The notes: generated by a model from the sequence alone, not told the origin. A stretch of DNA of 64,000 nt from Candidatus Omnitrophota bacterium (GCA_028715645.1 JAQURK010000002.1:756-64755); one strand, 5' to 3'. Shown: positions 5,220 to 46,865, counted from the first letter of the stretch. Numbers and translations are program-made.

Positions 5220-7037
5220 TTAGTCTAATTCAAACTCCTTTCTCCAATCGGTCTCTTCTTGAACATACCTCTGCTTGTGTTTATCCAAAAGAAAGCTCCC
5301 CATCACCAGGTAATCCATGTTTGTACGCATGAAGCAGCGGTAGGCCTCTTCCGGTCGGCAGACTATCGGTTCTCCTCTTACATTGAAGGAGGTGTTAATT
5401 ATCACCGGACAGCCGGTCTTTTCGTAAAATTTTTTTATGAGCGCATAATATACGGGGTGCTCCGTTTCTTTTATTGTCTGGATTCTGGCGGAGTAATCCA
5501 CATGAGTTACCGCCGGTATCTCTGAGCGAGCTACATTCAATTTGTCTATCCCGAACAGACTCTCCTGTTCCCCGGTAATCGCTATTCGCTTTTCTTTGCG
5601 CACGGGGCTTACCAAAAGCATATAAGGGCTGTCCTGTTCCATCTCAAAGTATTCGGAGACGCTTTCGCTCAAGACCGTCGGCGCAAATGGTCTGAACGAC
5701 TCCCTGAACTTTATCTTAAGATTCATAACGGACTGCATCTTTATTGAACGGGCGTCGCCGATGATGCTCCTTGCGCCAAGCGCCCTTGGGCCAAACTCCA
5801 TCCTTCCCGAAAACCAGCCGATGACCTTTTCCTGGCTTATTAGTCCGGCGACGGTTTCCAGAAGGGCATCCCTGTCTAATTTATTATGCGGTATAGACCT
5901 CTCCTTTAAAAAGGCTTCTATCTCTTGATCGGTGAAACTGGGGCCCAGGAGAGAGGCTTTCTGTGAATCAGTCACGCCATTTGACTTCCTTTCGTTGCCA
6001 AGATACTGATACCAGATAAAAAGGGCTGTTCCTAACGCCCCGCCCGCGTCCCCTGCCGCAGGTTGTATCCAGATATTCTTAAAGGGTCCGTCTTTTAAAA
6101 TCCGGCCGTTTCCGACGCAATTTAACGCGACCCCGCCGGCCAGGCACAGATTGTCTTTTCCCGTTTTCTTATGGACGCGCCTTGCCGACCTGAGCATAAT
6201 CTCCTCGGTAACAACCTGTATTGACCTCGCCAAATCCATGTCTTTCTGCGTAATTTTTGATTCGGGTCTTCGCGGAGGGCCGCCAAATAATTTGTCAAAC
6301 CGTCGATTCGTCATCGTGAGCCCGACCGCGTAATTAAAATATTTCATATTCATTTTAAAAGAGCCATCTTCCTTTAAATCCAGGAGTTCACTTAAAATCA
6401 TATCCACATATCTGGGCTTCCCATAAGGAGCGAGCCCCATTACCTTGTATTCCGCGGAATTCACCTTGAATCCCGTATAGTAGGTAAAGGCGGAATATAA
6501 AAGCCCCAGTGAATGCGGAAATCTCTGCTCTTCCAGTAATTCAATTCTGTTTCCGTCTCCCACACCAAAACTTGAAGTATCCCATTCACCCACAGCGTCC
6601 ATTGTCAATATCGCCGCGTCCTGAAACGGGGACGGGAAAAACGCCGATGCGGCATGGGATTCATGATGCTCTGGAAAAATAAGCTTACCCTTGTAATTCA
6701 ATTCATTACTGATGAAATCTGACATCCAGAGCCTCTGCTTAATCCAGATAGGCATGGCCTTCATAAAAGAGCGGATACCCCACGGGCTGTTTGCCAGATA
6801 CGTAAAAAGTATTCTCTCAAATTTTATAAAAGGCTTCTCATAAAAACCTATGAAGTCAACATCGCCTATGCCGATCCCACCTTCTTTCAGGCAATAGGCA
6901 ATCGCATTTTTAGGAAAATTGGCGTCGTGTTTTTTTCTTGTAAACCTTTCTTCCTGGGCGGCGGCCACTATCTCGCCGTCCTTCACAAGGCAGGCGGCCG
7001 AATCATGATAAAAACAGGATATCCCCAGAATATTCAT
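5220..7037 (-). CDS. Carbamoyltransferase (NodU/CmcH/SxtI family)
   Basis: 605 aa. The N-terminus MNILGISCFYHDSAACLV...PEHHESHAASAF is the Kae1/YgjD-like carbamoyltransferase domain, and a C-terminal YrdC-like domain follows. Confidence 0.85.
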   Translation of the reverse strand: MNILGISCFYHDSAACLVKDGEIVAAAQEERFTRKKHDANFPKNAIAYCLKEGGIGIGDVDFIGFYEKPFIKFERILFTYLANSPWGIRSFMKAMPIWIKQRLWMSDFISNELNYKGKLIFPEHHESHAASAFFPSPFQDAAILTMDAVGEWDTSSFGVGDGNRIELLEEQRFPHSLGLLYSAFTYYTGFKVNSAEYKVMGLAPYGKPRYVDMILSELLDLKEDGSFKMNMKYFNYAVGLTMTNRRFDKLFGGPPRRPESKITQKDMDLARSIQVVTEEIMLRSARRVHKKTGKDNLCLAGGVALNCVGNGRILKDGPFKNIWIQPAAGDAGGALGTALFIWYQYLGNERKSNGVTDSQKASLLGPSFTDQEIEAFLKERSIPHNKLDRDALLETVAGLISQEKVIGWFSGRMEFGPRALGARSIIGDARSIKMQSVMNLKIKFRESFRPFAPTVLSESVSEYFEMEQDSPYMLLVSPVRKEKRIAITGEQESLFGIDKLNVARSEIPAVTHVDYSARIQTIKETEHPVYYALIKKFYEKTGCPVIINTSFNVRGEPIVCRPEEAYRCFMRTNMDYLVMGSFLLDKHKQRYVQEETDWRKEFELD

Positions 7038-7966
7038 CTTGATTTAAACCAGTCCAGGGTAAGTTTGAGTCCGCGATCGAACTTTACGGAAGGGGTGATG
7101 CCAAGGTATGCCTTTAAGCCTTTGATATCCGCCTGTGTCTTTCTGGCGTCACCTTTACGGGCGGGGCCGAAGACAGGCTTTATTTTAGCGCCGAGGAATT
7201 TATTAAGGAATTTTATGATATCAAGCACGGAATAGCTGTCTCCGCATCCAACATTGATGACCCGGCCCGCGGCCTTTTTTGACAGGGCCGCGGCAAGATT
7301 TGCCTCAACTACGTTGAAAACGTAGGTAAAATCCCTCGATTGTACGCCCGTGCCGTCCACCATCGGGCTTTCTCCCTTAATCATCCTTGAGATAAATGCC
7401 GGTATTACGGCCGAATATTTGGATTCCGGGTTCTGCCTTGGGCCGAAAACATTGAAATACCGAAGCGAAACCGTCTCAAGGCCAAAGGTGGCGCTGTAGA
7501 CGCCGCAGTAATATTCACCTGCCAGTTTTGAGGCGCCGTACGGGGAAAGCGGGTTCAATAAGATATCCTCTTCCTGCGGAAATTTATCTACATTCCCATA
7601 TACCGAACTGCTTGAGGCATAGACAATCCTTTTTACCTTGGTCCTGTGGGCCGCTATGAGGACATTTAATGTCCCTGCGACATTTGTCTCGTTGCACAAT
7701 GTGGGGTTTTCAACGGATTTGGGCACGGAACGAAAGGCGGCCTGATGGATTACATAATCAATATCCTTCGAAACCTTTTCCATCAGCCCCAGGTCCCTTA
7801 TATCGCCTTCTATAAGCTCTATCCTTTTTAAAAAAGGCTCGAGGTTCTCCCTTTTACCGGTAATAAAATTGTCTATAACCCTTACTTCCTCGCCCCTCTT
7901 TACCAACTCCTCGACGATATTTGAACCTATGAAACCGGCGCCTCCGGTAACAAGATATCTGCTCAT
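7034..7966 (-). CDS. NAD-dependent nucleotide-sugar epimerase (UDP-GlcNAcA/UDP-GlcNAc 4-epimerase-like, TviC/WbpP family)
   Basis: GGAGFIGSN Rossmann motif, YxxxK active-site region, 310 aa. Paired with an adjacent UDP-sugar dehydrogenase. Confidence 0.75.
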   Translation of the reverse strand: MSRYLVTGGAGFIGSNIVEELVKRGEEVRVIDNFITGKRENLEPFLKRIELIEGDIRDLGLMEKVSKDIDYVIHQAAFRSVPKSVENPTLCNETNVAGTLNVLIAAHRTKVKRIVYASSSSVYGNVDKFPQEEDILLNPLSPYGASKLAGEYYCGVYSATFGLETVSLRYFNVFGPRQNPESKYSAVIPAFISRMIKGESPMVDGTGVQSRDFTYVFNVVEANLAAALSKKAAGRVINVGCGDSYSVLDIIKFLNKFLGAKIKPVFGPARKGDARKTQADIKGLKAYLGITPSVKFDRGLKLTLDWFKSR

Positions 7967-15990: not shown

Positions 15991-16952
15991 TTACCCTTTA
16001 GTCGCACAAGTACAGCGGCGCCGATCAAGCCCGCATCCTGACCTAGTTTTGCCTTCACAATCTTCGCGCAATCTGCCGGCAACCTCATGGCCCTTTGCTT
16101 GACGGTCTTTCTTATCGCTTCAAATAAAATCTTACCCGCATCCGCAATTCCGCCTCCGACAATAATCCTTTCAGGATTTAATAAATTTATCACGCCTGCT
16201 ACGGTTACGCCCAGATGACCGCCTATCTCTTCCCAGACTGAGGCGGCAAGCCTGTCGCCTTTTTTTTCGGCCATTGAAATAATCTCCGGCGTTATCTTTT
16301 TAAGGTCGCCGTTGACAAGGCCTGTAACGGCGGTTTTTTTACCTTCCTTTATTTTTCTGATAGCGACCTCAACTATGTACTTATTACCTACATATTTTTC
16401 CATACAGCCAAAACCGCCGCAGTTACAATTTGGACCTTTTTCATTTAAGGGCATATGGCCTATCTCACCGGCCGAAAGGGTGCTGCCTCTGTACAGCCTG
16501 CCATCAATGACAATGCCGCCGCCAACGCCGGTGCCAAGGGTAATGCATACCATGTTCTTCGCCCCTCGCCCTGCTCCGTGATGAAGTTCTCCGAGAGTCA
16601 TCACATTCACATCATTGTCAATAAAAACACTCATGCCGGTGGTTTTTTCAACAAGGTCTTTGAGCGGGACTTCTTTAAAACCTTTTATGTTAACGAGTTG
16701 ATGTATGATCCCCCTTTTTGAGTCAATAAGGCCCGGCGCCCCTATTCCTATGCCGAGTATATCCTGTTTCCTGAGACCGGCTTCTTTCATAATTTCAAGG
16801 CAGGCATTAGACAGGGCGCTTATCAGCGATGTCTTGCCTTTGTAGGCCCTTGTTGAAAGGTTGGACTTCTTCACTATCCTGTTCTCATCCTTAACAAGAG
16901 CGATTTTTATATTGGTCCCTCCCAGATCCGCCGCAATGACATATCTTTTCAT
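15987..16952 (-). CDS. ROK-family sugar kinase (glucokinase/N-acetylglucosamine kinase-like)
   Basis: ADLGGTNIKIALV N-terminal ATP motif, CxCGxxGC zinc motif, 321 aa. Confidence 0.8.
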   Translation of the reverse strand: MKRYVIAADLGGTNIKIALVKDENRIVKKSNLSTRAYKGKTSLISALSNACLEIMKEAGLRKQDILGIGIGAPGLIDSKRGIIHQLVNIKGFKEVPLKDLVEKTTGMSVFIDNDVNVMTLGELHHGAGRGAKNMVCITLGTGVGGGIVIDGRLYRGSTLSAGEIGHMPLNEKGPNCNCGGFGCMEKYVGNKYIVEVAIRKIKEGKKTAVTGLVNGDLKKITPEIISMAEKKGDRLAASVWEEIGGHLGVTVAGVINLLNPERIIVGGGIADAGKILFEAIRKTVKQRAMRLPADCAKIVKAKLGQDAGLIGAAVLVRLKGK

Positions 16953-17650
16953 GTTTCTACCCTGTTTCTCCCTTTTGTCTTTGCCCTGTACAGCGCCTCA
17001 TCCGCCATTTTTATAAAGTTCTCTTTCGTAAAATCAGTACTAAAGCCGTCAAAAAAACCGGCGCCCACGCTGAGCGTAACCTTCCTGTCGCCTCTGACTT
17101 TCATCTCTTCCGCCTTTTTCCTCAACCTTTCCGCCAGGGCAAGGGCATTTTCCTTTTTTATCTCCGGCATGATCACCGCAAACTCCTCGCCGCCGTACCT
17201 TGCGATGATATCGATCTTCCTGCAGGAGACCTTGAACATCCTTGCCAGTTCTATGAGGATGGCATCGCCCGCCTGATGGCCGAAACTGTCATTATAATTT
17301 TTAAAACGGTCAATATCAAGCATAAGTAATGAAAGCGGCCTGAGGTATCTTTTTGACCGCTCTATCTCCTCTCCAAGCCTCCTCATCAGATACTTGTGAT
17401 CGTAAAGGCCGGTGAGACTGTCCGTTATGGAAAGAAAATTGCTTATCTGCTTTTCAATCGCCTTATTGAACCGCGCCAGTATCGACAAGACAATCACGAT
17501 CGCCGCGCCCGAGGCGCAGGAAGCGGTAAGATAATCAAGGGAAAAAAGCTTCTGCGCGGCCTTCGTGGCTAAACTTTGCGATAAAAGGACAGCGCCCATA
17601 AAAAAAGCCATTAAAAAAATGAATTTTTTCATGCCTATGCTTACTGCCAT
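16949..17650 (-). CDS. Membrane-anchored GGDEF diguanylate cyclase
   Basis: Two N-terminal TM helices. The GGDEF domain has an intact RYGGEEF active site. Confidence 0.85.
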   Translation of the reverse strand: MAVSIGMKKFIFLMAFFMGAVLLSQSLATKAAQKLFSLDYLTASCASGAAIVIVLSILARFNKAIEKQISNFLSITDSLTGLYDHKYLMRRLGEEIERSKRYLRPLSLLMLDIDRFKNYNDSFGHQAGDAILIELARMFKVSCRKIDIIARYGGEEFAVIMPEIKKENALALAERLRKKAEEMKVRGDRKVTLSVGAGFFDGFSTDFTKENFIKMADEALYRAKTKGRNRVET

Positions 17651-18708
17651 CGCCCCTCCCCCGAAAACTGGATAACCTTGTTCCTGCCCATTGTCTTTGC
17701 CGCGTACAAGGCCTTATCCGCGGATTCCATTAACTCGGCAATTGTCTTCGCGTTATCCGGAAAAGTTGAAACCCCTATGCTTATCGTTATCTTAAGGGAC
17801 TCATTATAGATCATGAAATTCTGCCTGGCAACGGCCTCTCTCAGCCTCTCCGCCGCAAGCACCGCGCCGGCCTTATCCGTTTCAGGCAGGAGTATGGAAA
17901 ATTCTTCGCCTCCATACCTGCCGATGAGGTCTATCTCTCGAATGTTTTGTTTCAATACCCTTGCGACCTCTTTTAAGACCATATCGCCGAAAAGGTGGCC
18001 AAACCTGTCATTGCAGTCCTTGAAATGATCAAGGTCGACCATAAGATATGAAAGCCTGAACTTGCTTTTAAAGGAACGCTCAAATTCTTCCGCAAGCATT
18101 CCGATGAAATACCTCCTCACAAAGATGCCTGTTACCCCGTCGGTTATAGCGAGCTCCTGGATCTCTTTGTAAAGCCGCGCCTTATCTATCTGGAGGCTAA
18201 ACTGCCTGGCCACTATCAGGAATTTATCGACCGCTACCTCCTCCAGCCCTTCCACATCCACCGCGCCGATCGCCTGATTTCTGCTTTTAAGAGGAACGCG
18301 AAAATCCGCGGCGCTCATGCCTCCGCCCGCATTCTTTACCTCATAGACCTTTTCCTGAGCTTTCGTCCCGCTGCCGGAAAGAGACAGCCTGCAGGTCCGG
18401 AACCTGAAGTTCTTTTTTATGAATTCGCTGAATATCCTGAAGATATCCTCAAATAAAAGGGCTTGAGACATATTTTTTGTTATTTCATAAAGTCCTGATA
18501 TCTCGGAGATCCTTTCCTCAAGGGCCTTGTGGCGCGCAATAAGACCTTTGTTTTTTTCCTCAAGGTTTCGCAGTATTTTTTCAGAATCCGCTACTTCCTC
18601 CGTAAAAGACCTCTTTCTGTCAATGAGCGCTTTACCCAACACGACAAATACCACGGGGGCTGCGCAATACGCCGCAAGCGCGGGAACAATCAGATAGAAC
18701 CCGGCCAT
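17641..18708 (-). CDS. GGDEF diguanylate cyclase with N-terminal TM helix, coiled coil and GAF-like sensor region
   Basis: 355 aa with RYGGEEF motif. Overlaps its neighbours by a few nt, which suggests operon organisation. Confidence 0.85.
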   Translation of the reverse strand: MAGFYLIVPALAAYCAAPVVFVVLGKALIDRKRSFTEEVADSEKILRNLEEKNKGLIARHKALEERISEISGLYEITKNMSQALLFEDIFRIFSEFIKKNFRFRTCRLSLSGSGTKAQEKVYEVKNAGGGMSAADFRVPLKSRNQAIGAVDVEGLEEVAVDKFLIVARQFSLQIDKARLYKEIQELAITDGVTGIFVRRYFIGMLAEEFERSFKSKFRLSYLMVDLDHFKDCNDRFGHLFGDMVLKEVARVLKQNIREIDLIGRYGGEEFSILLPETDKAGAVLAAERLREAVARQNFMIYNESLKITISIGVSTFPDNAKTIAELMESADKALYAAKTMGRNKVIQFSGEGRWQ

Positions 18709-20138
18709 GTCCTGTTCCTGCCTGATTCTTTTGCCTTATATAAATTGCTATCGGCGGTTTTTAACAGCTTCTCAGCGGTAGTCCCGTCTTCCGGGAAAGA
18801 AGATATTCCTATGGAAACCGTCAGTTTTACCTCGTCCCTTCTTAGCGTAAAAAGTGTTTTTTCAAGCCCCTTTCTTATATCCTCGGAAATCTTCATTGCG
18901 GCTTTTTTATCTGCCTTGGGAAGGATCATGGCGAATTCTTCGCCGCCGTATCTCGCGATAACATGGCCTTCGCCGGCCAGGGCCCTAATGGCCTGGGCGA
19001 GTTTTATGAGCAGCAGGTCGCCTGCGGCATGGCCGTATTTATCATTATAACCCTTGAAATAATCTACATCTATCATGGCAACCGAAAATCTGCCGGCTTG
19101 CGCCCCCGCATTTCCTACCTTCAGCTCGAGCGCCTCCTTAAAATATCTCTGCACATAAAAACCGGTAAGGCCATCGGTGATCGCGAGCTCGTTTGTCCTT
19201 TCGTAAAGCATGGAGTTTTCGATGGAAACGGCGGCAAGGTCAGAAATGATATCAAGGAGCCTAAGATCGTCCTGGGTATAGGCGCCCTTCGCCATGGAAT
19301 CCATCCTGAGCACGCCCATTACCTTTTTCTCGCTCATTAACGGAACGCCTATGATGGATTTATATTGCCGGTCCGCGGGATCGGCAAGGGCCTCAATGGA
19401 AAACCTGAAATCGTTATCGAGGTCCTGTATTATAAGCGATTTCCTGTGTTTTAATATCCAGCTGTCGAAAGTCGTCAACCTTTGCTGTTTTTGGCCGCTT
19501 AAAAATAAAAACACCCTGTCTGAGCCTATGATCTTAAACGCCTTTGAGGTCACAAGTTTTATCGTCTCATCCAGGTTAAGGGTAGAGCTCAGCGCCTCTG
19601 TTATGTCTTTAAGCGCGGCGTACCCTTTAAACCTTTTTTCCGCGAACTCCATATCCTTTTCTTTTTTTGAGATCTTGAGGGCAAGGCTGTTTTCCTCAAC
19701 TTCCAGGACCTCAAGCATCGCAAGCGAACGGTTTCTGAAGGCGTTTAAACGCGAAAGGATTTTATATCCGGCAAAAGCGGCAATGCAGAATAAAGGAACA
19801 TAGATATTGTAGTCAAAAACGCCGTATCGAAGGAGGGTCATAAGAACAAAAAAACAGGAAAAAATAAGGATAAGCACGCCGCCTAACTGCCCCAGACAGA
19901 GCCAACTTATTAAATTGAGAGGGATAAACAAGGAGAGGTAAAGGACTATTACATTTCTATACTCCGCGGAAGACACCCTTAACCCCGGTGAAATGGCGCT
20001 CAACAGGCAATATACGATAATAAAAACAACTACTGTGCCTGTACCGGTAAAAAATATGGTCTTGGACGATTTTCTGTTATACAATTGTCCTGCCGGTATC
20101 TTTATCAAAAAAGTGGGCCTTTGACATGTCAAAAACAA
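18690..20138 (-). CDS. Polytopic membrane GAF-GGDEF diguanylate cyclase
   Basis: 482 aa with a multi-TM N-terminus, a GAF-like middle region, and RYGGEEF. The annotated 5' end overlaps the upstream gene by 62 nt, so the true start may be an internal Met. Confidence 0.8.
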   Translation of the reverse strand: MFLTCQRPTFLIKIPAGQLYNRKSSKTIFFTGTGTVVVFIIVYCLLSAISPGLRVSSAEYRNVIVLYLSLFIPLNLISWLCLGQLGGVLILIFSCFFVLMTLLRYGVFDYNIYVPLFCIAAFAGYKILSRLNAFRNRSLAMLEVLEVEENSLALKISKKEKDMEFAEKRFKGYAALKDITEALSSTLNLDETIKLVTSKAFKIIGSDRVFLFLSGQKQQRLTTFDSWILKHRKSLIIQDLDNDFRFSIEALADPADRQYKSIIGVPLMSEKKVMGVLRMDSMAKGAYTQDDLRLLDIISDLAAVSIENSMLYERTNELAITDGLTGFYVQRYFKEALELKVGNAGAQAGRFSVAMIDVDYFKGYNDKYGHAAGDLLLIKLAQAIRALAGEGHVIARYGGEEFAMILPKADKKAAMKISEDIRKGLEKTLFTLRRDEVKLTVSIGISSFPEDGTTAEKLLKTADSNLYKAKESGRNRTWPGSI

Positions 20139-22049: not shown

Positions 22050-23471
22050 TTAAAATATTTTCCCTGGATTTAATATCCCATTTGGATCAAATACCGCTTT
22101 TATTTTTTTCATAATTTCAACCTGGGTATCCCCTAAAAATTCCCCCAGGTATCCTTTTTTCACAAGCCCTATTCCATGTTCGCCGGAAACAATCCCTCCC
22201 CTTTTCCTTGCGTCTTCATGCAGAAGATCCCTGACAACCGGATAGATAGCCTCCCACCCCTTTTGCTCCGAAAAAACCGGCCTTCCTTCCTTAAAACCGA
22301 ATTTCATAATGTGAGTATGGACGTTTCCGTCGCCCGCATGGCCGTAAGTAGGAAGCCAAAGCCCGTGTTCCTTTTCTATACGGTGCACCGCCTCAACATG
22401 TCCGGCTATCTCAGAGAGGGGAACGGCTATGTCAAGGGTTTCAATACAGTTCGGCTTCATTGCGGTATACATCTGGCTCCTAAAATCAAGGATCTCCTTC
22501 TGCCGGGCCTTGTTATCGGCGACAAAAACATCCCTGGCGCCATTCTTAAGGCATATCTCGGCTATTATTTCAGAGGAATGGTTTATCCCTTCCTTATCCG
22601 CCGCATCAAGGAGGATCATCAAATACGCGCCTCCACCCTTTACGGGCCAGGCCCTGCCAAGATATCTTTCAGTCAATTCAATGGCATCCAGTTCAATAAA
22701 TTCGACCGCAAGCGGTATACAGTCGCTTTTTACGATTTCAGGCGCCGTTTTTATCGCATCCGCGATTTTTTCATAGGACACCACAAGGCAGCCGGTCTCC
22801 TTCGGCATCGGAAGCAGCCCTATGATTGCCTTTGTGATTACGCCCAGGGTCCCCTCAGAACCAATAAAAAGATTGAGCAGGTTTAACCCAGAGCTGTTTT
22901 TGATGAATTTTCCGCCTATTTTTATTATGCCGCCGCCTGGCAGGACCACTTCAAGGCCCCTGGTAAAATTCCTTATTGTGCCGTGTTTTACCGCCCTTGA
23001 GCCGCCCGCATTGGTCGCTATAACGCCGCCTACCGTAGCCGTTTCATCACCGGGATGGGGTGGGAAAAACAGCCCCTCCTTTTCTATAACTACGTAGAGG
23101 TCTTTTAACATTACCCCGGCCTCGGATGTAACCATAAAATTCCGGTTATCCACTTCAAGGACCTTATTAAGGTTATCAAATAATATGACTATACCTCCCT
23201 TTGCCGGAACGCATCCGCCGCAAAGGCCTGTCCCGCCGCCCCTTGGCGTTACCGGTATTTTTTCCTTATTCGCCAATTTTAAGATTTGTGAAATATCGTC
23301 GGCGGTTCTGGGTTTGACCGCAAGCAAAGGCAGGTTTTTTATGGCAGGGAGCGGAAATTCGTCGTGGGAATAATCCTGTAATTTCTCATTCTCAAAAATT
23401 ACATTTTGTATACCTGCTATACCCTGTAATTTTTTAATTAAACCGGCTTCCATTACCCTAAAATTTAGCAT
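22050..23471 (-). CDS. FAD-linked oxidase (GlcD / D-lactate dehydrogenase family)
   Basis: FAD-binding PCMH domain motifs in the N-terminal half. 473 aa. Confidence 0.8.
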   Translation of the reverse strand: MLNFRVMEAGLIKKLQGIAGIQNVIFENEKLQDYSHDEFPLPAIKNLPLLAVKPRTADDISQILKLANKEKIPVTPRGGGTGLCGGCVPAKGGIVILFDNLNKVLEVDNRNFMVTSEAGVMLKDLYVVIEKEGLFFPPHPGDETATVGGVIATNAGGSRAVKHGTIRNFTRGLEVVLPGGGIIKIGGKFIKNSSGLNLLNLFIGSEGTLGVITKAIIGLLPMPKETGCLVVSYEKIADAIKTAPEIVKSDCIPLAVEFIELDAIELTERYLGRAWPVKGGGAYLMILLDAADKEGINHSSEIIAEICLKNGARDVFVADNKARQKEILDFRSQMYTAMKPNCIETLDIAVPLSEIAGHVEAVHRIEKEHGLWLPTYGHAGDGNVHTHIMKFGFKEGRPVFSEQKGWEAIYPVVRDLLHEDARKRGGIVSGEHGIGLVKKGYLGEFLGDTQVEIMKKIKAVFDPNGILNPGKIF

Positions 23472-23504: not shown

Positions 23505-23624
23505 TTAAAATCCTACAGGCATACCTGCATATGCGCGCAGGGCCTGAAGAAAATTCAGGCGTTTCTTAAGGTACCTTGCGTGCCTTTTTATGTGCCGTTT
23601 GGCCTTATGATATATGCGCTTCAT
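23505..23624 (-). CDS. Candidate 39-aa highly basic peptide (MKRIYHKAKRHIKRHARYLKKRLNFLQALRAYAGMPVGF)
   Basis: A perfect AAGGAGG Shine-Dalgarno lies 6 nt upstream of the ATG and overlaps the stop codon of the upstream 1101-aa gene. Not in the ORF track because it is under 60 aa. No homolog recognised. Confidence 0.35.
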   Translation of the reverse strand: MKRIYHKAKRHIKRHARYLKKRLNFLQALRAYAGMPVGF

Positions 23625-23635
23625 TTTGCGCCTCC

Positions 23636-26600
23636 TTACTGTGTCGTTCCAAATGCTGTATTTGAGTATTTTGACTTCTCATTCCCTCTATATGCACACA
23701 CCCTATAATAATATGTTTTTCCCGAAGCAAGTCCTCCGGCCGTATATGTTGTTTTATTAGCGGTTACATAACCTTTATATGCGAATGTTACCCCATCCAT
23801 GCTTTGCTCTATCCTGAATCCTGTCTCATCAGCAGAATCATCCTGCCAGGTAAGTCTTATCTGGGTCGAGGACAATGCCTGGGCTATTAGGTTGGAGGGG
23901 GCTGCCGGAAGAACGGTCTTCAGTACCGTAGTGCCATATTGAGAGGCGCTGTCTCCTGTGGGCCCTGTCCCTGTCAAGATATAGGTATATGTCCCATCCG
24001 GCAAAAGGACGCCGGAGACATTCCTCCCATTCCACTTCACAGCAAGATTTGCCCCGAGGCCGGAGAAGGAGCGCACCGTTTGGTCAGCGGCATCTTTTAT
24101 CTCAATTGTCCAGACAACAGATTGATTAAACTTACCGCTTATCATTGTCGTTTCATTCACCCCGTCGCCATTAGGACTAAAAGGATCTGGAGTATCGCGC
24201 AATGAAAGGATGGAAACGGAATTAGGCATTACGGTAACTTTTGCCGTATCAATCACCGGCCCGTTACCTGCCGCGTCATCAACAGATAAGGCCACTATAT
24301 AATCTCTTACCTGTATAAAGGTAAAAGTGGGGTTTACGCCCCGGGCGTCTGCCTGAAAGCCCTGATGCGGATCATAGTCAAAATCCCAGAGATATGAAAC
24401 AGCGCCGACATTATCGCTTGAACCGGAGCCGTCGAAACTTACCGCTGTGTTTAACTTTACTGTTTTATCCTCTCCTGCGTTGGCTACAGGCGGTGTGGTA
24501 TCAGGCGGCATGTGCGTTTCCCCTCCGGGCACCCAGATCGTCAATCTATTGATCATAGTGGCGGCATCATGGCCTGGTGTGCCGTAACCCAATCTTACAT
24601 CAAGACGGCCGTCGGTTACCTTTACCTTTGCCGGCCAGACCCATAAGGTATTGGCTGGATCGTTGGGTTTTAGCGCATCAAGGATTATTTCGTTTGGAGT
24701 TCCGGGTTCAAGAACGATGTGGGTATCCCCGAAGAAAGTAAGCGGAGACGTATTCCCTGAAGCCCTCCCCCTTCCAACAGTGATATTGACATCATATTCG
24801 CCGTTAGGAAGATCCGTGGACCATGTGTTTAGAGTGTTATTCGCCACATAGCAGAATGAATTATCGGCGTCCAGATATGCGTTGTTGTAATTATAGTCAT
24901 AATTATAGTAATAATTAACATTAGCATTTGACCAGCCGTTACGTATCTTGGCATCATACAGCCCTAATGATACCCTTGTTCCTTGAGGAAGACAGACAAG
25001 CGGGCCAAAGTCAAATTCTCCTACAAGTTCACCCGCGTCTGACAGCGCAGGTGTCGTGAATGAGTATTCATCGCTTATCGCCTCCTCGCCCTCGCGCCAG
25101 CTCTTTACGCGGTAGTAATATGTAGTATTGGGTTTGAGGCAGTTTAGGGCCAACCTGTGTGAGGATTTGAATACCTGATTTTGGTCGCCCCTCATATCTA
25201 TATAAGGATATCTCCCTGCGGTGGTCCCGAATTCTATTTGTCCTCTGGTAGCGAGGGCGTTATTTTGGCTGTCTTTAGAGTCCCATGTTATGACTGCCCT
25301 CTCGGATGTAAGCTCCGCGACGCTTACATCCGAGATGAATGGCGTATTAAGCGTTGTATCGTTTTTATCTATGATATATTTATCGCGTAAGTTTCTGCTT
25401 GCCCTGCGCGCGGTGTATGTCCCGCTTTCCTGGTATCCGTATGTCTCAACCGTGCATTTTTTATCTTCTACGGTCATCTCAATATAGCTCACCTTGCCAT
25501 CCCCTGGCGGTGTATTGTAAAGAGAGTTATGCGCTATCCCAAGGCCGTCAACTCCGGATTGGCAAAGATGATATATCGTTCCTTTGCAATTGGCGTTATA
25601 ATATCCTGCATCCTGCGAACAGATGATGCCCCATTGTTTGGGGTCAATGGGGTTTCTGATTAATGGGTATGTCCTTTCATGTATATGCCAATGGCCCGAA
25701 AATTGAATGTCTACATCATACGTATCATAAAGACGCATTGTCTCTAAATCTGTATGGGATAATTTTAATTGCGTATTTACCAACGACCTCTTAGTTGTGC
25801 CACCGTCTCCGTATACAGGACCATGCCGGCCTGTAAATATATAGTTTATGTCCCTTGCCCTCGCCTGGATGAGGTCCTGCTCTCCCCATGCATTGTAGGT
25901 TAAGGATAAACCCCATTCCCCATAAGAAACAAAATGCGCTTTGCCGTAGTCGAAACTGAAGATAACCTCTTTTTTATCATCCGGGCCGTTCTCAGGGAAA
26001 TAATTGAATTCTCTATACCTCGCCAACCCAGCTCCGCTGCCTTCCGTACTATCGCAGTCCCTCTCGTGGCCGCCTGTTATATGAACATAAACGGCTGTGG
26101 CGTAAAGCTCGCGGAACATAAAGAACATATCCGTATAATTAGTTAAAGTACCGGAGGCGACTATATCACCCTGCAGGAATATAACATCCGGATCAAACTT
26201 TAGCATATCCGGCAACATGGAGGAAAGCGATAAAACCGCCTGAGGTTTTATACTATGGAAGTCGGCTCCCACCAATACCTTAAACCTTCCATCAGGAGGC
26301 GATGTCTTAAACTCATAGACAGGCGAGGTATCGTTATCACCTTCCACATAGTAGCGGTATGTCGTTCCCGGCTCAAGGTCGGTGAGTTTAATGAAGTGTT
26401 TGGTGTCAATATCTGGAAGTATGATTGAATATTCATTCTCGTCTGATATTCCATAATGTATGACCGCTGAAGAAGGATTGGCGGTCCTGAAAGCGACACC
26501 GATGGCTGCGCGTAATCTTTCGGTACCGTCACTATAGAGGAGCTCCCCTGTGTTGATATCGGGGTCAGCCCCTCCTGTCGGCTGTAGATACGGCCCAACA

Positions 26601-26941
26601 GTGATACCTGAGCCATCGTCGGGGATAAAAGACACCCCGATATTTTTGTTTGAATCCATCGTGATGTATATGGGATTATACCTGTCTTGGCCTTGCGGTA
26701 TATCCCCCGACCATCTATCAAAAACATTCTTGCTCACGTAATCACCGGAAGCGATTAACCTTACTACCGTCCCTGCGGGATAGTCTTGGCCGGATGGGCT
26801 GGCCACATATTGGCCATTGCCCTGTGTGCTCACAGTTAGGGTATAGGTGCCTTCGACAAAGCCTATACTCATCGGTATTGCAAAGAAGACAATGCTAAGT
26901 ACTATAATAGAGGATATTTTAATTACCTTATATTTCTTCAT
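23636..26941 (-). CDS. Large secreted multi-domain metallophosphoesterase (purple-acid-phosphatase-like calcineurin-type domain with FN3, PKD and FlgD Ig-like domains)
   Basis: 1101 aa. Signal peptide; PAP N-terminal FN3-like domain; metallophosphoesterase motifs (GDxxASG...GHWH); PKD-like segment (VSFDGSGSSD...); FlgD Ig-like motif (DPFSPNGDGVNE); C-terminal FN3 domain. Confidence 0.75.
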   Translation of the reverse strand: MKKYKVIKISSIIVLSIVFFAIPMSIGFVEGTYTLTVSTQGNGQYVASPSGQDYPAGTVVRLIASGDYVSKNVFDRWSGDIPQGQDRYNPIYITMDSNKNIGVSFIPDDGSGITVGPYLQPTGGADPDINTGELLYSDGTERLRAAIGVAFRTANPSSAVIHYGISDENEYSIILPDIDTKHFIKLTDLEPGTTYRYYVEGDNDTSPVYEFKTSPPDGRFKVLVGADFHSIKPQAVLSLSSMLPDMLKFDPDVIFLQGDIVASGTLTNYTDMFFMFRELYATAVYVHITGGHERDCDSTEGSGAGLARYREFNYFPENGPDDKKEVIFSFDYGKAHFVSYGEWGLSLTYNAWGEQDLIQARARDINYIFTGRHGPVYGDGGTTKRSLVNTQLKLSHTDLETMRLYDTYDVDIQFSGHWHIHERTYPLIRNPIDPKQWGIICSQDAGYYNANCKGTIYHLCQSGVDGLGIAHNSLYNTPPGDGKVSYIEMTVEDKKCTVETYGYQESGTYTARRASRNLRDKYIIDKNDTTLNTPFISDVSVAELTSERAVITWDSKDSQNNALATRGQIEFGTTAGRYPYIDMRGDQNQVFKSSHRLALNCLKPNTTYYYRVKSWREGEEAISDEYSFTTPALSDAGELVGEFDFGPLVCLPQGTRVSLGLYDAKIRNGWSNANVNYYYNYDYNYNNAYLDADNSFCYVANNTLNTWSTDLPNGEYDVNITVGRGRASGNTSPLTFFGDTHIVLEPGTPNEIILDALKPNDPANTLWVWPAKVKVTDGRLDVRLGYGTPGHDAATMINRLTIWVPGGETHMPPDTTPPVANAGEDKTVKLNTAVSFDGSGSSDNVGAVSYLWDFDYDPHQGFQADARGVNPTFTFIQVRDYIVALSVDDAAGNGPVIDTAKVTVMPNSVSILSLRDTPDPFSPNGDGVNETTMISGKFNQSVVWTIEIKDAADQTVRSFSGLGANLAVKWNGRNVSGVLLPDGTYTYILTGTGPTGDSASQYGTTVLKTVLPAAPSNLIAQALSSTQIRLTWQDDSADETGFRIEQSMDGVTFAYKGYVTANKTTYTAGGLASGKTYYYRVCAYRGNEKSKYSNTAFGTTQ

Positions 26942-27231
26942 TTGATTACCTCCGTTTTTTTCCTGCTTTTACTACCCTGAAAAATCGCCTTCCTGGCTAT
27001 TTCTTCAAATATCTTATTCATCAACTCCTCTTTGGAATGGATGTTTTCGCCGGTGACGCCCTTTTTCATACAAGCCTCTACCATCGCTTCTATAATCTTT
27101 GCCTTTGGCAGTTTTGTCCCTGTAGTAAATAAGGAATCCTTGCTGAGCTTATCTATATAATCCAACTCCTCCCTTGTAAGAAAGGTTATGACCCTTGACA
27201 GTAATTCTTTTTTTTCATGTTGAGTGCTCAT
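26938..27231 (-). CDS. Small protein with N-terminal ribbon-helix-helix-like fold (putative DNA-binding protein)
   Basis: 97 aa. The 'LLSRVITFLTREELDYIDKL' segment fits a beta-strand/helix RHH pattern. ATGA overlaps at both ends indicate translational coupling. Confidence 0.45.
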   Translation of the reverse strand: MSTQHEKKELLSRVITFLTREELDYIDKLSKDSLFTTGTKLPKAKIIEAMVEACMKKGVTGENIHSKEELMNKIFEEIARKAIFQGSKSRKKTEVIK

Positions 27232-27422
27232 TTTTGTTCACCTCGATAATAATCCTCAAGTTTTCTCTGTATATTCTCCCTCTCAGCCGGCGTCAATATC
27301 TGTTTTACCACATAGGAATAAACATCTTCGGCTGTCATCACAGGAAGCTTATACTTATTACCGTTGGCGCATGAGAATTCCTTCAATTCCACCTTGCATT
27401 TCCTTACTATATAGATATCCAT
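27228..27422 (-). CDS. Small hypothetical protein (64 aa from the ATG; the ORF track extends it to a TTG start at 27440)
   Basis: The ATG is preceded by AAGGAGG at 5-nt spacing. First gene downstream of the riboswitch-like leader. Confidence 0.5.
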   Translation of the reverse strand: MDIYIVRKCKVELKEFSCANGNKYKLPVMTAEDVYSYVVKQILTPAERENIQRKLEDYYRGEQK

Positions 27423-27446
27423 AGCAACCTCCTTGGGCAATAAAAA

Positions 27447-27476
27447 AACCTTACTCCATTGGGAATAAGGTTTTTT
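27447..27476 (-). terminator. Intrinsic terminator hairpin (9-bp stem CCUUAUUCC/GGAGUAAGG, CAAU loop, U7 tract). Doubles as the candidate riboswitch expression platform and terminates proS.
   Basis: Seen directly. The hairpin is flanked by A6-7 on one side and T7 on the other, so it is bidirectional. It lies about 10 nt upstream of the SD of the small ORF. Confidence 0.6.
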
Positions 27477-27482
27477 ATCACT

Positions 27483-27573
27483 GTCTTCGGCAACCCTGCC
27501 GCCCTATCCCGGTTACGGAACTTAGGCCGTGGCTTTCCGCCCCCCGCTTTCGCGAGGTTAGGCTTGTTCGTAC
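27483..27573 (-). ncRNA. c-di-GMP-I (GEMM) riboswitch-like aptamer
   Basis: The minus-strand RNA is ...ACGAACAAGCCUAACCUCGCGAAAGCGGGGGGCGGAAAGCCACGGCCUAAGUUCCGUAACCGGGAUAGGGCGGCAGGGUUGCCGAAG. It has a GAAA-tetraloop P2, the GCGGAAAGCCACGGCC segment (compare GEMM ACGCAAAGCCnCGG), and a 3' GGCAGGGUUGCCGA segment (compare AGCnGGGUURCCGA). Overall similarity to the V. cholerae Vc2 aptamer. Confidence 0.6.
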
Positions 27574-27630: not shown

Positions 27631-27659
27631 AGTATACCTGACAAATGTCATTTTGTCAA
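27631..27659 (-). promoter_or_regulatory. Sigma70-like promoter for the riboswitch/small-protein/giant-protein operon (TTGACA, 17-nt spacer, TATACT)
   Basis: Read on the minus strand: attgacaaaatgacatttgtcaggtatact. Overlapped by TGACA-N2-TGTCA and TGTCA-N4-TGACA palindromes. Confidence 0.5.
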
Positions 27660-27678
27660 TAGTGACAAAGTAAAATAA

Positions 27679-29388
27679 TTAAAAAAGTTTTATATGATCT
27701 AAAACGCTATCGGCGGGAACTATTACCCTGTTTCCGGTCCTTCGGTCTTTGATTTCGACTTTTTTGGCCTCGAAATGGCGGTCACTTACGATTATCTGGT
27801 AGGTAAACCCAATAAGATCGGCATCCTTGAATTTGACCCCTGCCCTGTCGTCTCTATCATCCAATATAACTTCTACATACCTCTTATCTAACACCGCATA
27901 TATTTCTTCTGCCATGTCCATAAGTTTTTTATCCGCGGAGTTAACAGGTATAATAACCACCTTGAATGGGCTGATTGAAACCGGCCAGATTATGCCGTTT
28001 TCATCGTTATTCTGTTCTATGGCAGCCGCCGCAATCCGGTTTACGCCTATACCATAGCATCCCATGATCATTGGTTGTTCCCTGCCCTGTTCATCCAGGT
28101 ATGCCGCGCCCAGAGGCTTCGAATATTTGGTTCCTAATTTAAAGGTATGTCCCACTTCTATGGCGGTTTTTAATTTGATTTGCTTGCCGCATCTTGGGCA
28201 CATATCGTCGGGCGTGATGTATCTCAGGTCGGCCCATTCCTCAACCTGAAAATCCCTGCTTAGGTTTACATTTATAAGATGTTTATCTTTTTTATTCGCC
28301 CCTGTGATAAAATCAGTCATAGTGGAAACGCTGTAATCGGCCGCTATTCTTGTTCCTTTTAAATCAACAGGCCCGCTAAAACCAAGAGGGCCTCCCGTAA
28401 CAGATTTTATTGTGCCTTCATCCGCCAGTTCAAGGATTTCGCATTTTAAGTACTTTTTTAGTTTGGCTTCATTTACCTCATGATCGCCCCTTACCAGGAC
28501 CGCTACAGGTTGACCGTCCGCCTTGTATATAAGCGTCTTTACCATTTTCTCGGCAGGGAACTTAAGCAGCGCGCTGACTTTTTCAATAGTCGTCACGCCG
28601 GGGGTGTCCACTTCCTTAAGAGACGCCAATTGGGTCTTGGGTCTATGGTCAATGGTCAATGGTCTATGGTCTTTAATTGCCGCCACTTCCCGGCTTGCAG
28701 AATACCCGCATGAATCGCATATCACGATTAAATCCTCGCCCACCTCTGAAGGCACCATGAATTCATGAGATACGTTTCCCCCCATAAATCCGGGGTCCGC
28801 TTCAACAGGGATGTAATCGAGCCCGCATCTTGAAAAAATACTGCAATAGGCCTCATACATCTTTGCGTAGCTCTTATCCAGGCCCTCCAGGTCACGATCA
28901 AAACTATAAGCGTCCTTCATTATGAATTCTTTCGAACGCAAGATCCCGAATCTGGGCCTGGGTTCGTCTCTGAATTTTGTCTGGATCTGATAAAGTATCT
29001 GCGGGAGCTGCTTGTAGGACTTGACTTCGCCGGCGACAAGAGAGGTTATTATCTCTTCGTGCGTCGGCCCAAGCACGCACTCCTTGTCATGCCTGTCTTT
29101 AAACTTTATTAGCACATCGCCAAGGAGATCATATCTGCCTGTCTGTCTCCATAATTCCGGCGGTTGTATGGCCGGCAAAAGCACTTCCTGGGCGCCTTTT
29201 TTATTCATTTCATCGCGAATAATTTTTTTTACCTTATCGAGCACGCGAAGGCCAAGAGGCAGGTATGAATATGTGCCCGAAGTAAGTTTTCGGATAAGGC
29301 CCGCGCGGACCATCAGGATGTGGCTTTTGGCCTCAGCGTCCTGCGGCGCTTCTTTAAGGGTTGGAATAAGGGCTCGAGTCCATCGCAT
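27679..29388 (-). CDS. proS: Proline--tRNA ligase
   Basis: 569 aa, class II aaRS motifs, N-terminus MRWTRALIPTLKE.... Confidence 0.9.
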   Translation of the reverse strand: MRWTRALIPTLKEAPQDAEAKSHILMVRAGLIRKLTSGTYSYLPLGLRVLDKVKKIIRDEMNKKGAQEVLLPAIQPPELWRQTGRYDLLGDVLIKFKDRHDKECVLGPTHEEIITSLVAGEVKSYKQLPQILYQIQTKFRDEPRPRFGILRSKEFIMKDAYSFDRDLEGLDKSYAKMYEAYCSIFSRCGLDYIPVEADPGFMGGNVSHEFMVPSEVGEDLIVICDSCGYSASREVAAIKDHRPLTIDHRPKTQLASLKEVDTPGVTTIEKVSALLKFPAEKMVKTLIYKADGQPVAVLVRGDHEVNEAKLKKYLKCEILELADEGTIKSVTGGPLGFSGPVDLKGTRIAADYSVSTMTDFITGANKKDKHLINVNLSRDFQVEEWADLRYITPDDMCPRCGKQIKLKTAIEVGHTFKLGTKYSKPLGAAYLDEQGREQPMIMGCYGIGVNRIAAAAIEQNNDENGIIWPVSISPFKVVIIPVNSADKKLMDMAEEIYAVLDKRYVEVILDDRDDRAGVKFKDADLIGFTYQIIVSDRHFEAKKVEIKDRRTGNRVIVPADSVLDHIKLF

Positions 29389-46783: not shown

Positions 46784-46865
46784 TGCGGAAGGAGAGATTT
46801 GAACTCTCAAGGGTTGCCCCATACGGTCCTGAGCCGTACGCGTATGCCAGTTCCGCCACTTCCGC
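46784..46865 (-). tRNA. tRNA-Leu (anticodon CAG)
   Basis: Cloverleaf folds cleanly. 7-bp acceptor stem GCGGAAG/CUUCCGC; D-loop with GG; anticodon stem UACGG/CCGUA with loop CUCAGGA; long variable arm GGGG-CAA-CCCU; T-loop UUCAAAU. No encoded CCA. Confidence 0.9.

Follow-up and report, generated by a model that had tools for sequence, protein, structure and literature searches.

How is a locus to be understood in which a very large, predicted secreted phosphoesterase is encoded together with three small proteins, behind a leader that resembles a cyclic di-GMP (c-di-GMP) riboswitch? The question is raised by a four-gene unit in a stretch of 64,000 nucleotides (nt) from a Candidatus Omnitrophota metagenome-assembled genome (MAG; GCA_028715645.1, JAQURK010000002.1:756-64755), the whole of which is referred to here as the window. 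The minus strand carries every gene of the window, and the proteins of the source MAG (Candidatus Omnitrophica) are annotated solely as hypothetical. Here it is proposed that the locus is probably a c-di-GMP-gated transcription unit composed of a conserved regulatory cassette and a swappable cargo gene, with the product of the second open reading frame (ORF), ORF2, as the output module. The interest of the locus lies in the small ORF2 protein family and not in the phosphoesterase; ORF2, about 95 amino acids (aa) long and cytoplasmic, is by its distribution the riboswitch partner that is conserved across the phylum, rather than the enzyme.

The four ORFs, named ORF1, ORF2, ORF3 and pep39 (Table 1), were all found as an earlier note on this DNA had described them, linked by 4-nt ATGA overlaps at the ORF1/ORF2 and ORF2/ORF3 junctions and, at the last junction, by the perfect AAGGAGG Shine-Dalgarno sequence (SD) of pep39, which overlaps the TAA stop of ORF3. 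A GGAGG-type SD is present for each of the four genes. Position 27440, where the unit had previously been taken to end, corresponds to a TTG start that gives a longer reading of ORF1; all ORF1 homologues begin with MDIYI.

The ORF2 family and its link to c-di-GMP

ORF2 has 24 non-identical homologues (E down to 2e-36, identity 43-75% over the alignment), and a profile search of 1.84 billion representatives returned 240 family members at E<=1e-3, of which 141 reach E<=1e-10. All genome matches of the family belong to Omnitrophota MAGs or to bins labelled as Planctomycetes-Verrucomicrobia-Chlamydiae (PVC). Forty related loci (designated by L numbers) were examined for comparison, and an ORF2-family gene is present in all of them except L001. 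In this last locus, a 42-aa hydrophobic ORF (1722..1850) occupies the place of ORF2 while ORF1, pep39 and the riboswitch are intact, a natural loss or replacement of ORF2.

An aptamer of the RF01051 or RF03167 model lies 100-400 nt upstream of the ORF2-family gene in every locus with enough upstream sequence, except for the fusions to a receiver (REC) domain. Riboswitch matches above the gathering score were found upstream of the ORF2 homologues of L002-L005, L007-L016, L018-L028, L030, L031 and L033-L035, and the same is true of L038, L039 and L040, the three loci in which a PilZ-fused member was examined; large genes follow these three. The match of L017 is sub-threshold (32.7 bits), the misses in L006, L029 and L032 are due to contig edges, and no riboswitch match was found upstream of the REC-ORF2 fusions of L036 and L037. 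In many distant ORF2 loci, the c-di-GMP-I-GGC variant model RF03167 scores best, over RF01051, namely in L008, L009, L011, L018, L019, L025-L027, L030 and L040.

Domain fusions were counted in 139 family representatives, the set that was also scanned against Pfam for the diverse members. A C-terminal PilZ domain with the RxxxR and DxSxxG motifs is present in 29 of them and an N-terminal receiver domain (Response_reg) in three; no PilZ match in Pfam was obtained for the window's own ORF2, ORF1 or pep39. These PilZ and receiver fusions, together with the riboswitch linkage, lead to the reading of the ORF2 domain as an output module, which would receive either a c-di-GMP input via RNA, PilZ or both, or a phosphorylation input via the receiver domain. 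A literature search turned up no account of the ORF2 family, its linkage to riboswitches or its fusions to PilZ and REC. The L036 contig, which encodes one of the REC-ORF2 fusions, also bears a complete 16S rRNA gene (788..2348, minus strand) that could place the lineage taxonomically.

The gene after ORF2, which often overlaps the ORF2 stop by 3-13 nt, varies among the loci. It encodes S8 subtilases in L005, L018, L031 and L039, a cadherin/Ig protein in L012, HAMP-GAF-GGDEF cyclases in L014 and L017, T2SSE/PilT-like ATPases in L019 and L020, and a DUF2341/LamG/PKD/fn3 protein after the PilZ-fused ORF2 of L038, while a GH9 cellulase stands behind a second riboswitch in L030. Other genes next to ORF2 include those for TIGR04073 proteins and for an exported family of about 96 aa, as well as the phosphoesterase-like gene of the window. 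The cargo list is one of classic c-di-GMP output functions. Because it is nearly always preceded by a riboswitch, is repeatedly fused to PilZ or receiver domains and heads operons of secreted hydrolases, adhesins, cyclases and pilus-type ATPases, the ORF2 domain is a strong candidate for a new c-di-GMP output module in an uncultivated phylum.

Additional observations concern the arrangement of cassette and cargo. A second c-di-GMP riboswitch follows the ORF2 gene and directly precedes the cargo in L030 (6463..6551, before the 1417-aa GH9 cellulase) and in L013 (7513..7649, before a 439-aa ORF), giving the order riboswitch, ORF2, riboswitch, cargo. In genomes of the L002 type, the riboswitch is preceded not by proS but by a gene for a protein of >1480 aa with nine InlB-B-repeat (Flg_new_2) and TIG domains (L002 329..1411, L003 72..4514), and large surface proteins thus flank the cassette on either side in different genomes.

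Promoter, riboswitch and terminator

The strong sigma-70-type promoter ahead of the leader, TTGACA-17-TATACT, is the top promoter-like site in the 12 kb between 16 and 28 kb of the window, and its -35/spacer/-10 block is kept at the nucleotide level in close-clade loci. The leader, previously described as GEMM-like, contains a full-length c-di-GMP-I riboswitch aptamer (64 bits against a gathering score of 35, E 3.3e-10), and this full-score match supports placing the unit under c-di-GMP riboswitch control. To judge from the context, namely the three GGDEF genes nearby and the PilZ fusions of ORF2 relatives, the ligand would be c-di-GMP rather than cyclic GMP-AMP. The window's sole other Rfam match is an 82-nt tRNA with a long variable arm (46784..46865, minus strand).

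The expression platform consists of a 9-bp hairpin and a U7 run, separated from the aptamer by 15 nt and from the ORF1 start codon by 19 nt. An equivalent hairpin and U-run follow the aptamer in all eight close-clade leaders, in each of which the hairpin is self-contained and lies clear of the aptamer. The terminator 5' arm is also complementary to the aptamer 3' strand. When this pairing, taken with the 3' half of the aptamer, was compared with shuffled sequences, 1 of 200 shuffles was as good for the window, 2 of 200 for L001, none of 200 for L002 and 5 of 200 for L005. Furthermore, eight leaders were truncated just before the terminator 3' arm and their minimum-free-energy folds computed as a test of folding during transcription; in six of the eight, the terminator 5' arm pairs with the GGCAGGGUU strand of the aptamer.

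The anti-terminator pairing in the folds, together with the non-overlapping terminator, favours an OFF switch, in which c-di-GMP would cause termination, and this direction is held with modest confidence. Two observations weigh against it: the duplex statistics are weak in L007, L022, L021 and L024, and the window's own truncated-leader fold leaves the aptamer intact.

In the proposed mechanism, the promoter would drive a leader with the c-di-GMP-I aptamer, followed by the terminator and the four translationally coupled genes. In the absence of c-di-GMP, the aptamer 3' strand would pair with the terminator 5' arm and allow read-through; with c-di-GMP bound, the aptamer would be locked and the terminator would form, so that the regulator and the secreted enzyme would be shut down together.

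The sequence between pep39 and the glcD-like gene was inspected for a terminator and no convincing one was found, which makes read-through of the riboswitch transcript into glcD, accD and perhaps the GGDEF genes conceivable. Three consecutive GGDEF genes, one of them GAF-GGDEF, lie in the same gene run as pep39, 3.4-6.6 kb downstream of it (16949..20138, minus strand), and the triplet is syntenic in L001, L002 and L006. If the riboswitch transcript does reach these genes, c-di-GMP would feed back on its own synthesis.

Table 1. Features of the four-gene unit, its control region and its flanks in the window (positions counted from the first nucleotide of the window)
Feature	Position	Strand	Description
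proS	27679..29388	minus	flanks the four-ORF unit upstream
TGTCA/TGACA half-site array	27639..27667	minus	TGTCA-N4-TGACA-N3-TGACA-N2-TGTCA; candidate operator, inferred from sequence
Sigma-70-type promoter	27631..27659	minus	TTGACA (27659..27654), 17-nt spacer, TATACT (27636..27631); 11/12 consensus positions
c-di-GMP-I riboswitch aptamer (RF01051)	27486..27573	minus	full model, 1-87 of 87
Intrinsic terminator	27442..27470	minus	CCUUAUUCC, loop CAAU, GGAGUAAGG, then U7; sequence and fold
ORF1	27228..27422	minus	64 aa from ATG; AAGGAGG SD at 27428..27434
ORF2	26938..27231	minus	97 aa; unannotated family, motif RVITFLTREELDFIDK...G.KL.R
ORF3	23636..26941	minus	1101 aa; predicted exported multidomain purple-acid-phosphatase-like metallophosphoesterase
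Signal peptide (predicted)	ORF3 aa 1-31	minus	N-terminal hydrophobic signal-like segment in translation
InlB-B-repeat-like	ORF3 aa 33-114	minus	
Metallophos	ORF3 aa 221-420, 25682..26281	minus	Pfam, 30.8 bits, cutoff 21.5
Pur_ac_phosph_N	ORF3 aa 539-630, 25052..25327	minus	Pfam, 84 bits
PKD (PKD_4)	ORF3 aa 816-904, 24230..24496	minus	Pfam
FlgD_ig	ORF3 aa 943-992, 23966..24115	minus	Pfam
fn3	ORF3 aa 1014-1095, 23657..23902	minus	Pfam
pep39	23505..23624	minus	39 aa, Lys/Arg/His-rich; AAGGAGG SD
glcD-like FAD oxidase	22050..23471	minus	flanks the four-ORF unit downstream

Function of the ORF2 protein

The proposed output role leaves the question of what the ORF2 protein does. A small dimeric, DNA-binding regulator of ribbon-helix-helix (RHH) type is its most likely identity, at about even confidence, and the main rival is a protein-protein adaptor. 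The earlier note had called the N-terminus of ORF2 RHH-like, and this label is the one part of its description that is not firmly confirmed: hhalign places ORF2 in the RHH register when compared with seven RHH sequences (P=0.03 only), and profile, Foldseek and Protein Data Bank (PDB) profile searches do not support it. The array of TGTCA/TGACA half-sites, which overlaps the -35 box and spacer of the window promoter, is a candidate operator; it recurs in full in L001, L002, L021 and L024, and L007 has a part of it. In 23 loci, TGACAA and GTACAA are enriched 17- to 24-fold upstream of the riboswitches in comparison with the rest of those loci. Distant loci have 8-bp-periodic GTGTAAAA/GTACAAAA repeats directly upstream of the -35 box, which are possible operators; in L034 they lie about 80-120 nt before its riboswitch at 1709.

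Several results weigh against DNA binding. The AlphaFold2 model of ORF2 is poor and all-helical (predicted local distance difference test, pLDDT, 64), and a Foldseek search with it returned nothing below E 2. Pfam scans of 25 close and of 139 diverse members returned no RHH family at cutoffs as loose as E<=1-10, and neither did a PDB-profile search of ORF2. The putative ribbon, RVIxxL, is mostly hydrophobic, without the alternating polar and hydrophobic pattern of classic RHH ribbons, and the operator idea depends on a k-mer enrichment that was measured on a mostly coding background. Assignment of ORF2 to ComFB, CdbA or any annotated family was rejected, with no significant match in Pfam, NCBIfam, PHROGs or PADLOC and no PDB sequence-profile match.

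These negative searches suit the rival, in which the ORF2 family would consist of non-DNA-binding cytoplasmic adaptors that couple c-di-GMP, through PilZ or through an abundance set by the riboswitch, to the export, folding or anchoring of the next-encoded protein; their partner could be, for example, an ATPase of type II/IV secretion or the exported protein itself while nascent. It is also consistent with the gene after ORF2, which is very often translationally coupled and has a product exported by a signal-peptide heuristic, and with the T2SSE/PilT-like ATPase that comes next in two loci. PilZ fusions commonly work by protein-protein contacts, as in the YcgR type. Set against this, the REC-ORF2 layout is that of response regulators with a C-terminal output domain, and such output domains are most often DNA-binding. 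In addition, cyclases of the cytoplasmic membrane are among the cargo and an exported neighbour is missing from some loci, which makes a single export client unlikely, and the conserved repeats overlap the promoter. An adaptor function is considered unlikely on balance.

As a DNA-binding regulator, ORF2 would have its amount set by the riboswitch in the window, and by the riboswitch together with PilZ in relatives, and it may act on the TGTCA/TGACA repeats over its own promoter. A broader proposal, which is tentative and rather doubtful, is that the domain represents a new DNA-binding c-di-GMP output domain, widespread in Omnitrophota and under double control, by riboswitch and often PilZ, that would serve as a master switch for the interchangeable secreted hydrolases, adhesins, pilus/secretion ATPases and cyclases of an attached or predatory lifestyle of these nanobacteria. 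The peptide pep39, with its KRxxxR motif, would be its dedicated partner and might bind c-di-GMP or nucleic acid as a minimal peptide.

Synteny and the insertion of ORF3

The gene order in the close clade is proS, riboswitch, ORF1, ORF2, pep39, a TIGR04073-family exported protein, the glcD-like gene, accD, an ABC ATPase gene and three GGDEF genes; the synteny from proS to the GGDEF genes was followed in L001, L002 and L006. In L002/L003/L004/L023, L006, L021 and L022, ORF1, ORF2 and pep39 adjoin one another without an intervening large gene, and in L002 pep39 begins at the ORF2 stop (ATGA). Because pep39 directly follows ORF2 in these sister loci, ORF3 seems to have been inserted between the two in the lineage of the window, with the coupling signals kept. 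In L005, the slot contains a TIGR04073-like gene and a gene for a 2339-aa S8 subtilase. The protein of about 107 aa that matches TIGR04073 ("exosortase system-associated") is encoded after pep39 or ORF2 in L002 (2457..2780), L005 (1097..1417), L006 (671..997), L021 and L022, and is absent from the window.

This arrangement bears on the idea, suggested by the earlier note, of a single four-gene system built around the phosphoesterase with tiny accessory proteins. On such a reading, the 64-aa, 97-aa and 39-aa products would be chaperones, inhibitor/immunity proteins or maturation factors specific to the enzyme. The tight coupling of all four genes in one transcription unit agrees with it, and the combination, as had been suspected, corresponds to no described system in Pfam, NCBIfam, PADLOC, PHROGs or the literature searched. 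The idea is not supported by the contiguity and conservation of ORF1, ORF2 and pep39 where the locus has no such enzyme, nor by the unrelated cargo that accompanies ORF2 homologues. A synteny search for the same four-gene unit returned only L041, whose DNA is 100% identical to the window and which was rejected as an independent copy, being of the same population; SRR22315506 carries the identical contig. This copy aside, ORF3 shares with the other fetched loci only its C-terminal fn3 and N-terminal InlB-B-repeat-like modules. A dedicated four-gene system is for these reasons improbable, and the reading of a cassette with swappable cargo is retained. No significant PADLOC or PHROGs match was found for the locus proteins that would indicate a defence-system or phage origin.

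ORF1 and pep39

ORF1 and pep39 are, by their distribution, clade-specific additions to the cassette, ORF1 being restricted to the close clade and pep39 to a part of it. Conservation of the small ORFs in syntenic loci, on which the earlier note had made its reading depend, was found: in addition to the ORF2 homologues, 11 non-identical homologues were obtained for ORF1 (E down to 6e-25), and pep39 is present in five further loci (L001, the L002 group, L006, L021 and L022; hmmsearch E 1e-25 to 1e-29, weaker in L022 at 8e-8). The small ORFs are evidently not chance ORFs. The predicted fold of ORF1 has four strands and one helix (pLDDT 73), and predicted-structure and family searches returned no structural or sequence relative outside its own homologues.

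In the five further loci, the length, frame and GGAGG SD of pep39 are kept, and its synonymous codon differences from the window equal or exceed the non-synonymous ones (for example, 16 against 12 over 39 codons, at 31% nucleotide divergence), as is to be read for a real gene. The peptide is extremely basic; it ends in AGMPVG and contains a KRHxKR (RxxxR) motif that is conserved. An origin as a remnant of the N-terminal RxxxR switch of PilZ was rejected, as the pep39 profile gave nothing below E 0.045 against the 139 family members (hmmsearch). A protein-database search found the identical sequence only; short ORFs are seldom called as genes.

A toxin-antitoxin-like pair of ORF1 and ORF2 (small toxin and RHH antitoxin) that happens to sit behind the riboswitch, an idea to which the RHH-like register of ORF2 would lend itself, is very improbable given that no significant toxin or antitoxin family match was found in Pfam, NCBIfam, PADLOC or PHROGs, that most ORF2 loci lack ORF1, and that the PilZ/REC fusions of ORF2 and the fixed proS...glcD synteny are atypical of such modules.

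The phosphoesterase-like cargo protein

For ORF3, the earlier description as a secreted metallophosphoesterase of purple acid phosphatase (PAP) type with FN3, PKD and FlgD Ig-like domains agrees with the Pfam hidden Markov model search, in which Metallophos, Pur_ac_phosph_N, PKD_4, FlgD_ig and fn3 were found. Metallophos and Pur_ac_phosph_N, the two domains that define the PAP architecture, both score over their Pfam cutoffs, and Pur_ac_phosph_N is matched in three stretches of the protein. The low-complexity tract YYNYDYNYNNAY that had been reported is also readable in the translation. Export is indicated because of the N-terminal hydrophobic signal-like segment.

The nearest solved structures to the catalytic part are those of the plant PAPs 6gja (E 2e-8) and 3zk4 (E 6e-6), with which the GD, GRHGPVY and GHWHIHER motifs of ORF3 align (phmmer). 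Canonical PAPs were defined by seven invariant metal ligands in the motifs GDxG / GDxxY / GNH(D/E) / VxxH / GHxH. In ORF3 the ligands D, D, H, H and H are present, while the position of the GDxxY Tyr is a gap in the alignment (GDIV-A) and GNHE is replaced by GGHE. With two of the seven metal ligands missing, ORF3 is, as far as its motifs indicate, PAP-like and not a canonical PAP, and its catalysis is uncertain; altered chemistry, or a binding protein instead of an enzyme, may follow, which counts against an enzymatic role in the proposed mechanism. If active, ORF3 would use extracellular phosphoesters as substrates, while its Ig-like, PKD and FN3 modules would tether it to a surface or polymer. 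The regulated surface nuclease/phosphatase or biofilm-matrix module suggested in the earlier note is a guess at what this cargo may do.

ORF3 was rejected as an orthologue of the other riboswitch-linked giant proteins, as a BLASTP comparison with the L010 protein and a tblastn search of all loci recovered terminal modules only. Its C-terminal fn3 (aa 1011-1100) shares 43-49% identity with fn3 repeats inside the S8 protease of L005 (about 5563..7776) and with the fn3 domain at the C-terminus of the GH9 cellulase of L030 (10632..10889). Both of these giants are riboswitch-linked and otherwise unrelated, and the common fn3 may be an anchoring or sorting module.

Comparison with known systems

The likeness of ORF3 to the plant PAPs 6gja and 3zk4 lies in the succession of the FN3-like Pur_ac_phosph_N and Metallophos domains. 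It differs from them in the loss of the motif II Tyr (GDIVA) and the change of the Asn of GNHE to Gly (GGHE), in its additional InlB-B-repeat-like, further Pur_ac_phosph_N, PKD, FlgD_ig and fn3 modules, and in being a bacterial, predicted exported protein of 1101 aa.

Among c-di-GMP-responsive regulators, the MrkH-type PilZ transcription factor sits before the mrk fimbrial genes, an arrangement resembled by the ORF2-PilZ fusions that stand before adhesin or hydrolase genes. CdbA of Myxococcus xanthus is a c-di-GMP-binding ribbon-helix-helix protein (PMC7156744). Unlike in these two systems, to neither of which ORF2 has detected sequence similarity, the window's ORF2 is without PilZ and c-di-GMP enters through RNA.

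Operons for extracellular proteins under c-di-GMP-I riboswitches are known from C. difficile, with Cd1-type OFF switches, the riboswitch-controlled protease ZmpI/PPEP-1 and adhesins (PMC6200980, PMC6366702), and in V. cholerae the Vc2-tfoY riboswitch of the same class gates a regulator (10.1101/617340). The gating of secreted proteases, adhesins and regulators by c-di-GMP riboswitches, as well as c-di-GMP-linked RHH and PilZ regulators, is thus already known. The Omnitrophota locus shares with these cases a GEMM-I aptamer and a terminator platform that gate secreted or surface proteins and, as in Vc2-tfoY, a regulator. It differs in that it comes from another phylum, that the conserved first gene belongs to an unannotated family of about 95 aa, that the enzyme or adhesin is interchangeable, and that some Omnitrophota relatives bear a second riboswitch before the cargo (L030, L013); the direction of regulation is here a prediction from folding. 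The locus shows clearly how, in nature, cargo can be exchanged while the cassette of riboswitch and regulator in front of it stays the same. Known c-di-GMP receptors and outputs are few in comparison with the many cyclases encoded in genomes, a gap stressed in PMC12448109.

In the Omnitrophota themselves, large extracellular proteins have been linked to a predatory or epibiotic lifestyle, and stand-alone pilZ genes have been reported downstream of giant genes (West-Roberts et al., 10.1101/2023.11.21.568195). A term search of that text gave no occurrence of "riboswitch", and no description of the ORF2 domain was noticed there. The ORF2 cassette offers a handle on how members of this phylum regulate their large extracellular proteins. 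Both cases, from the same phylum, have small c-di-GMP-related genes beside very large extracellular proteins; in the present loci, the small gene lies upstream, behind a riboswitch.

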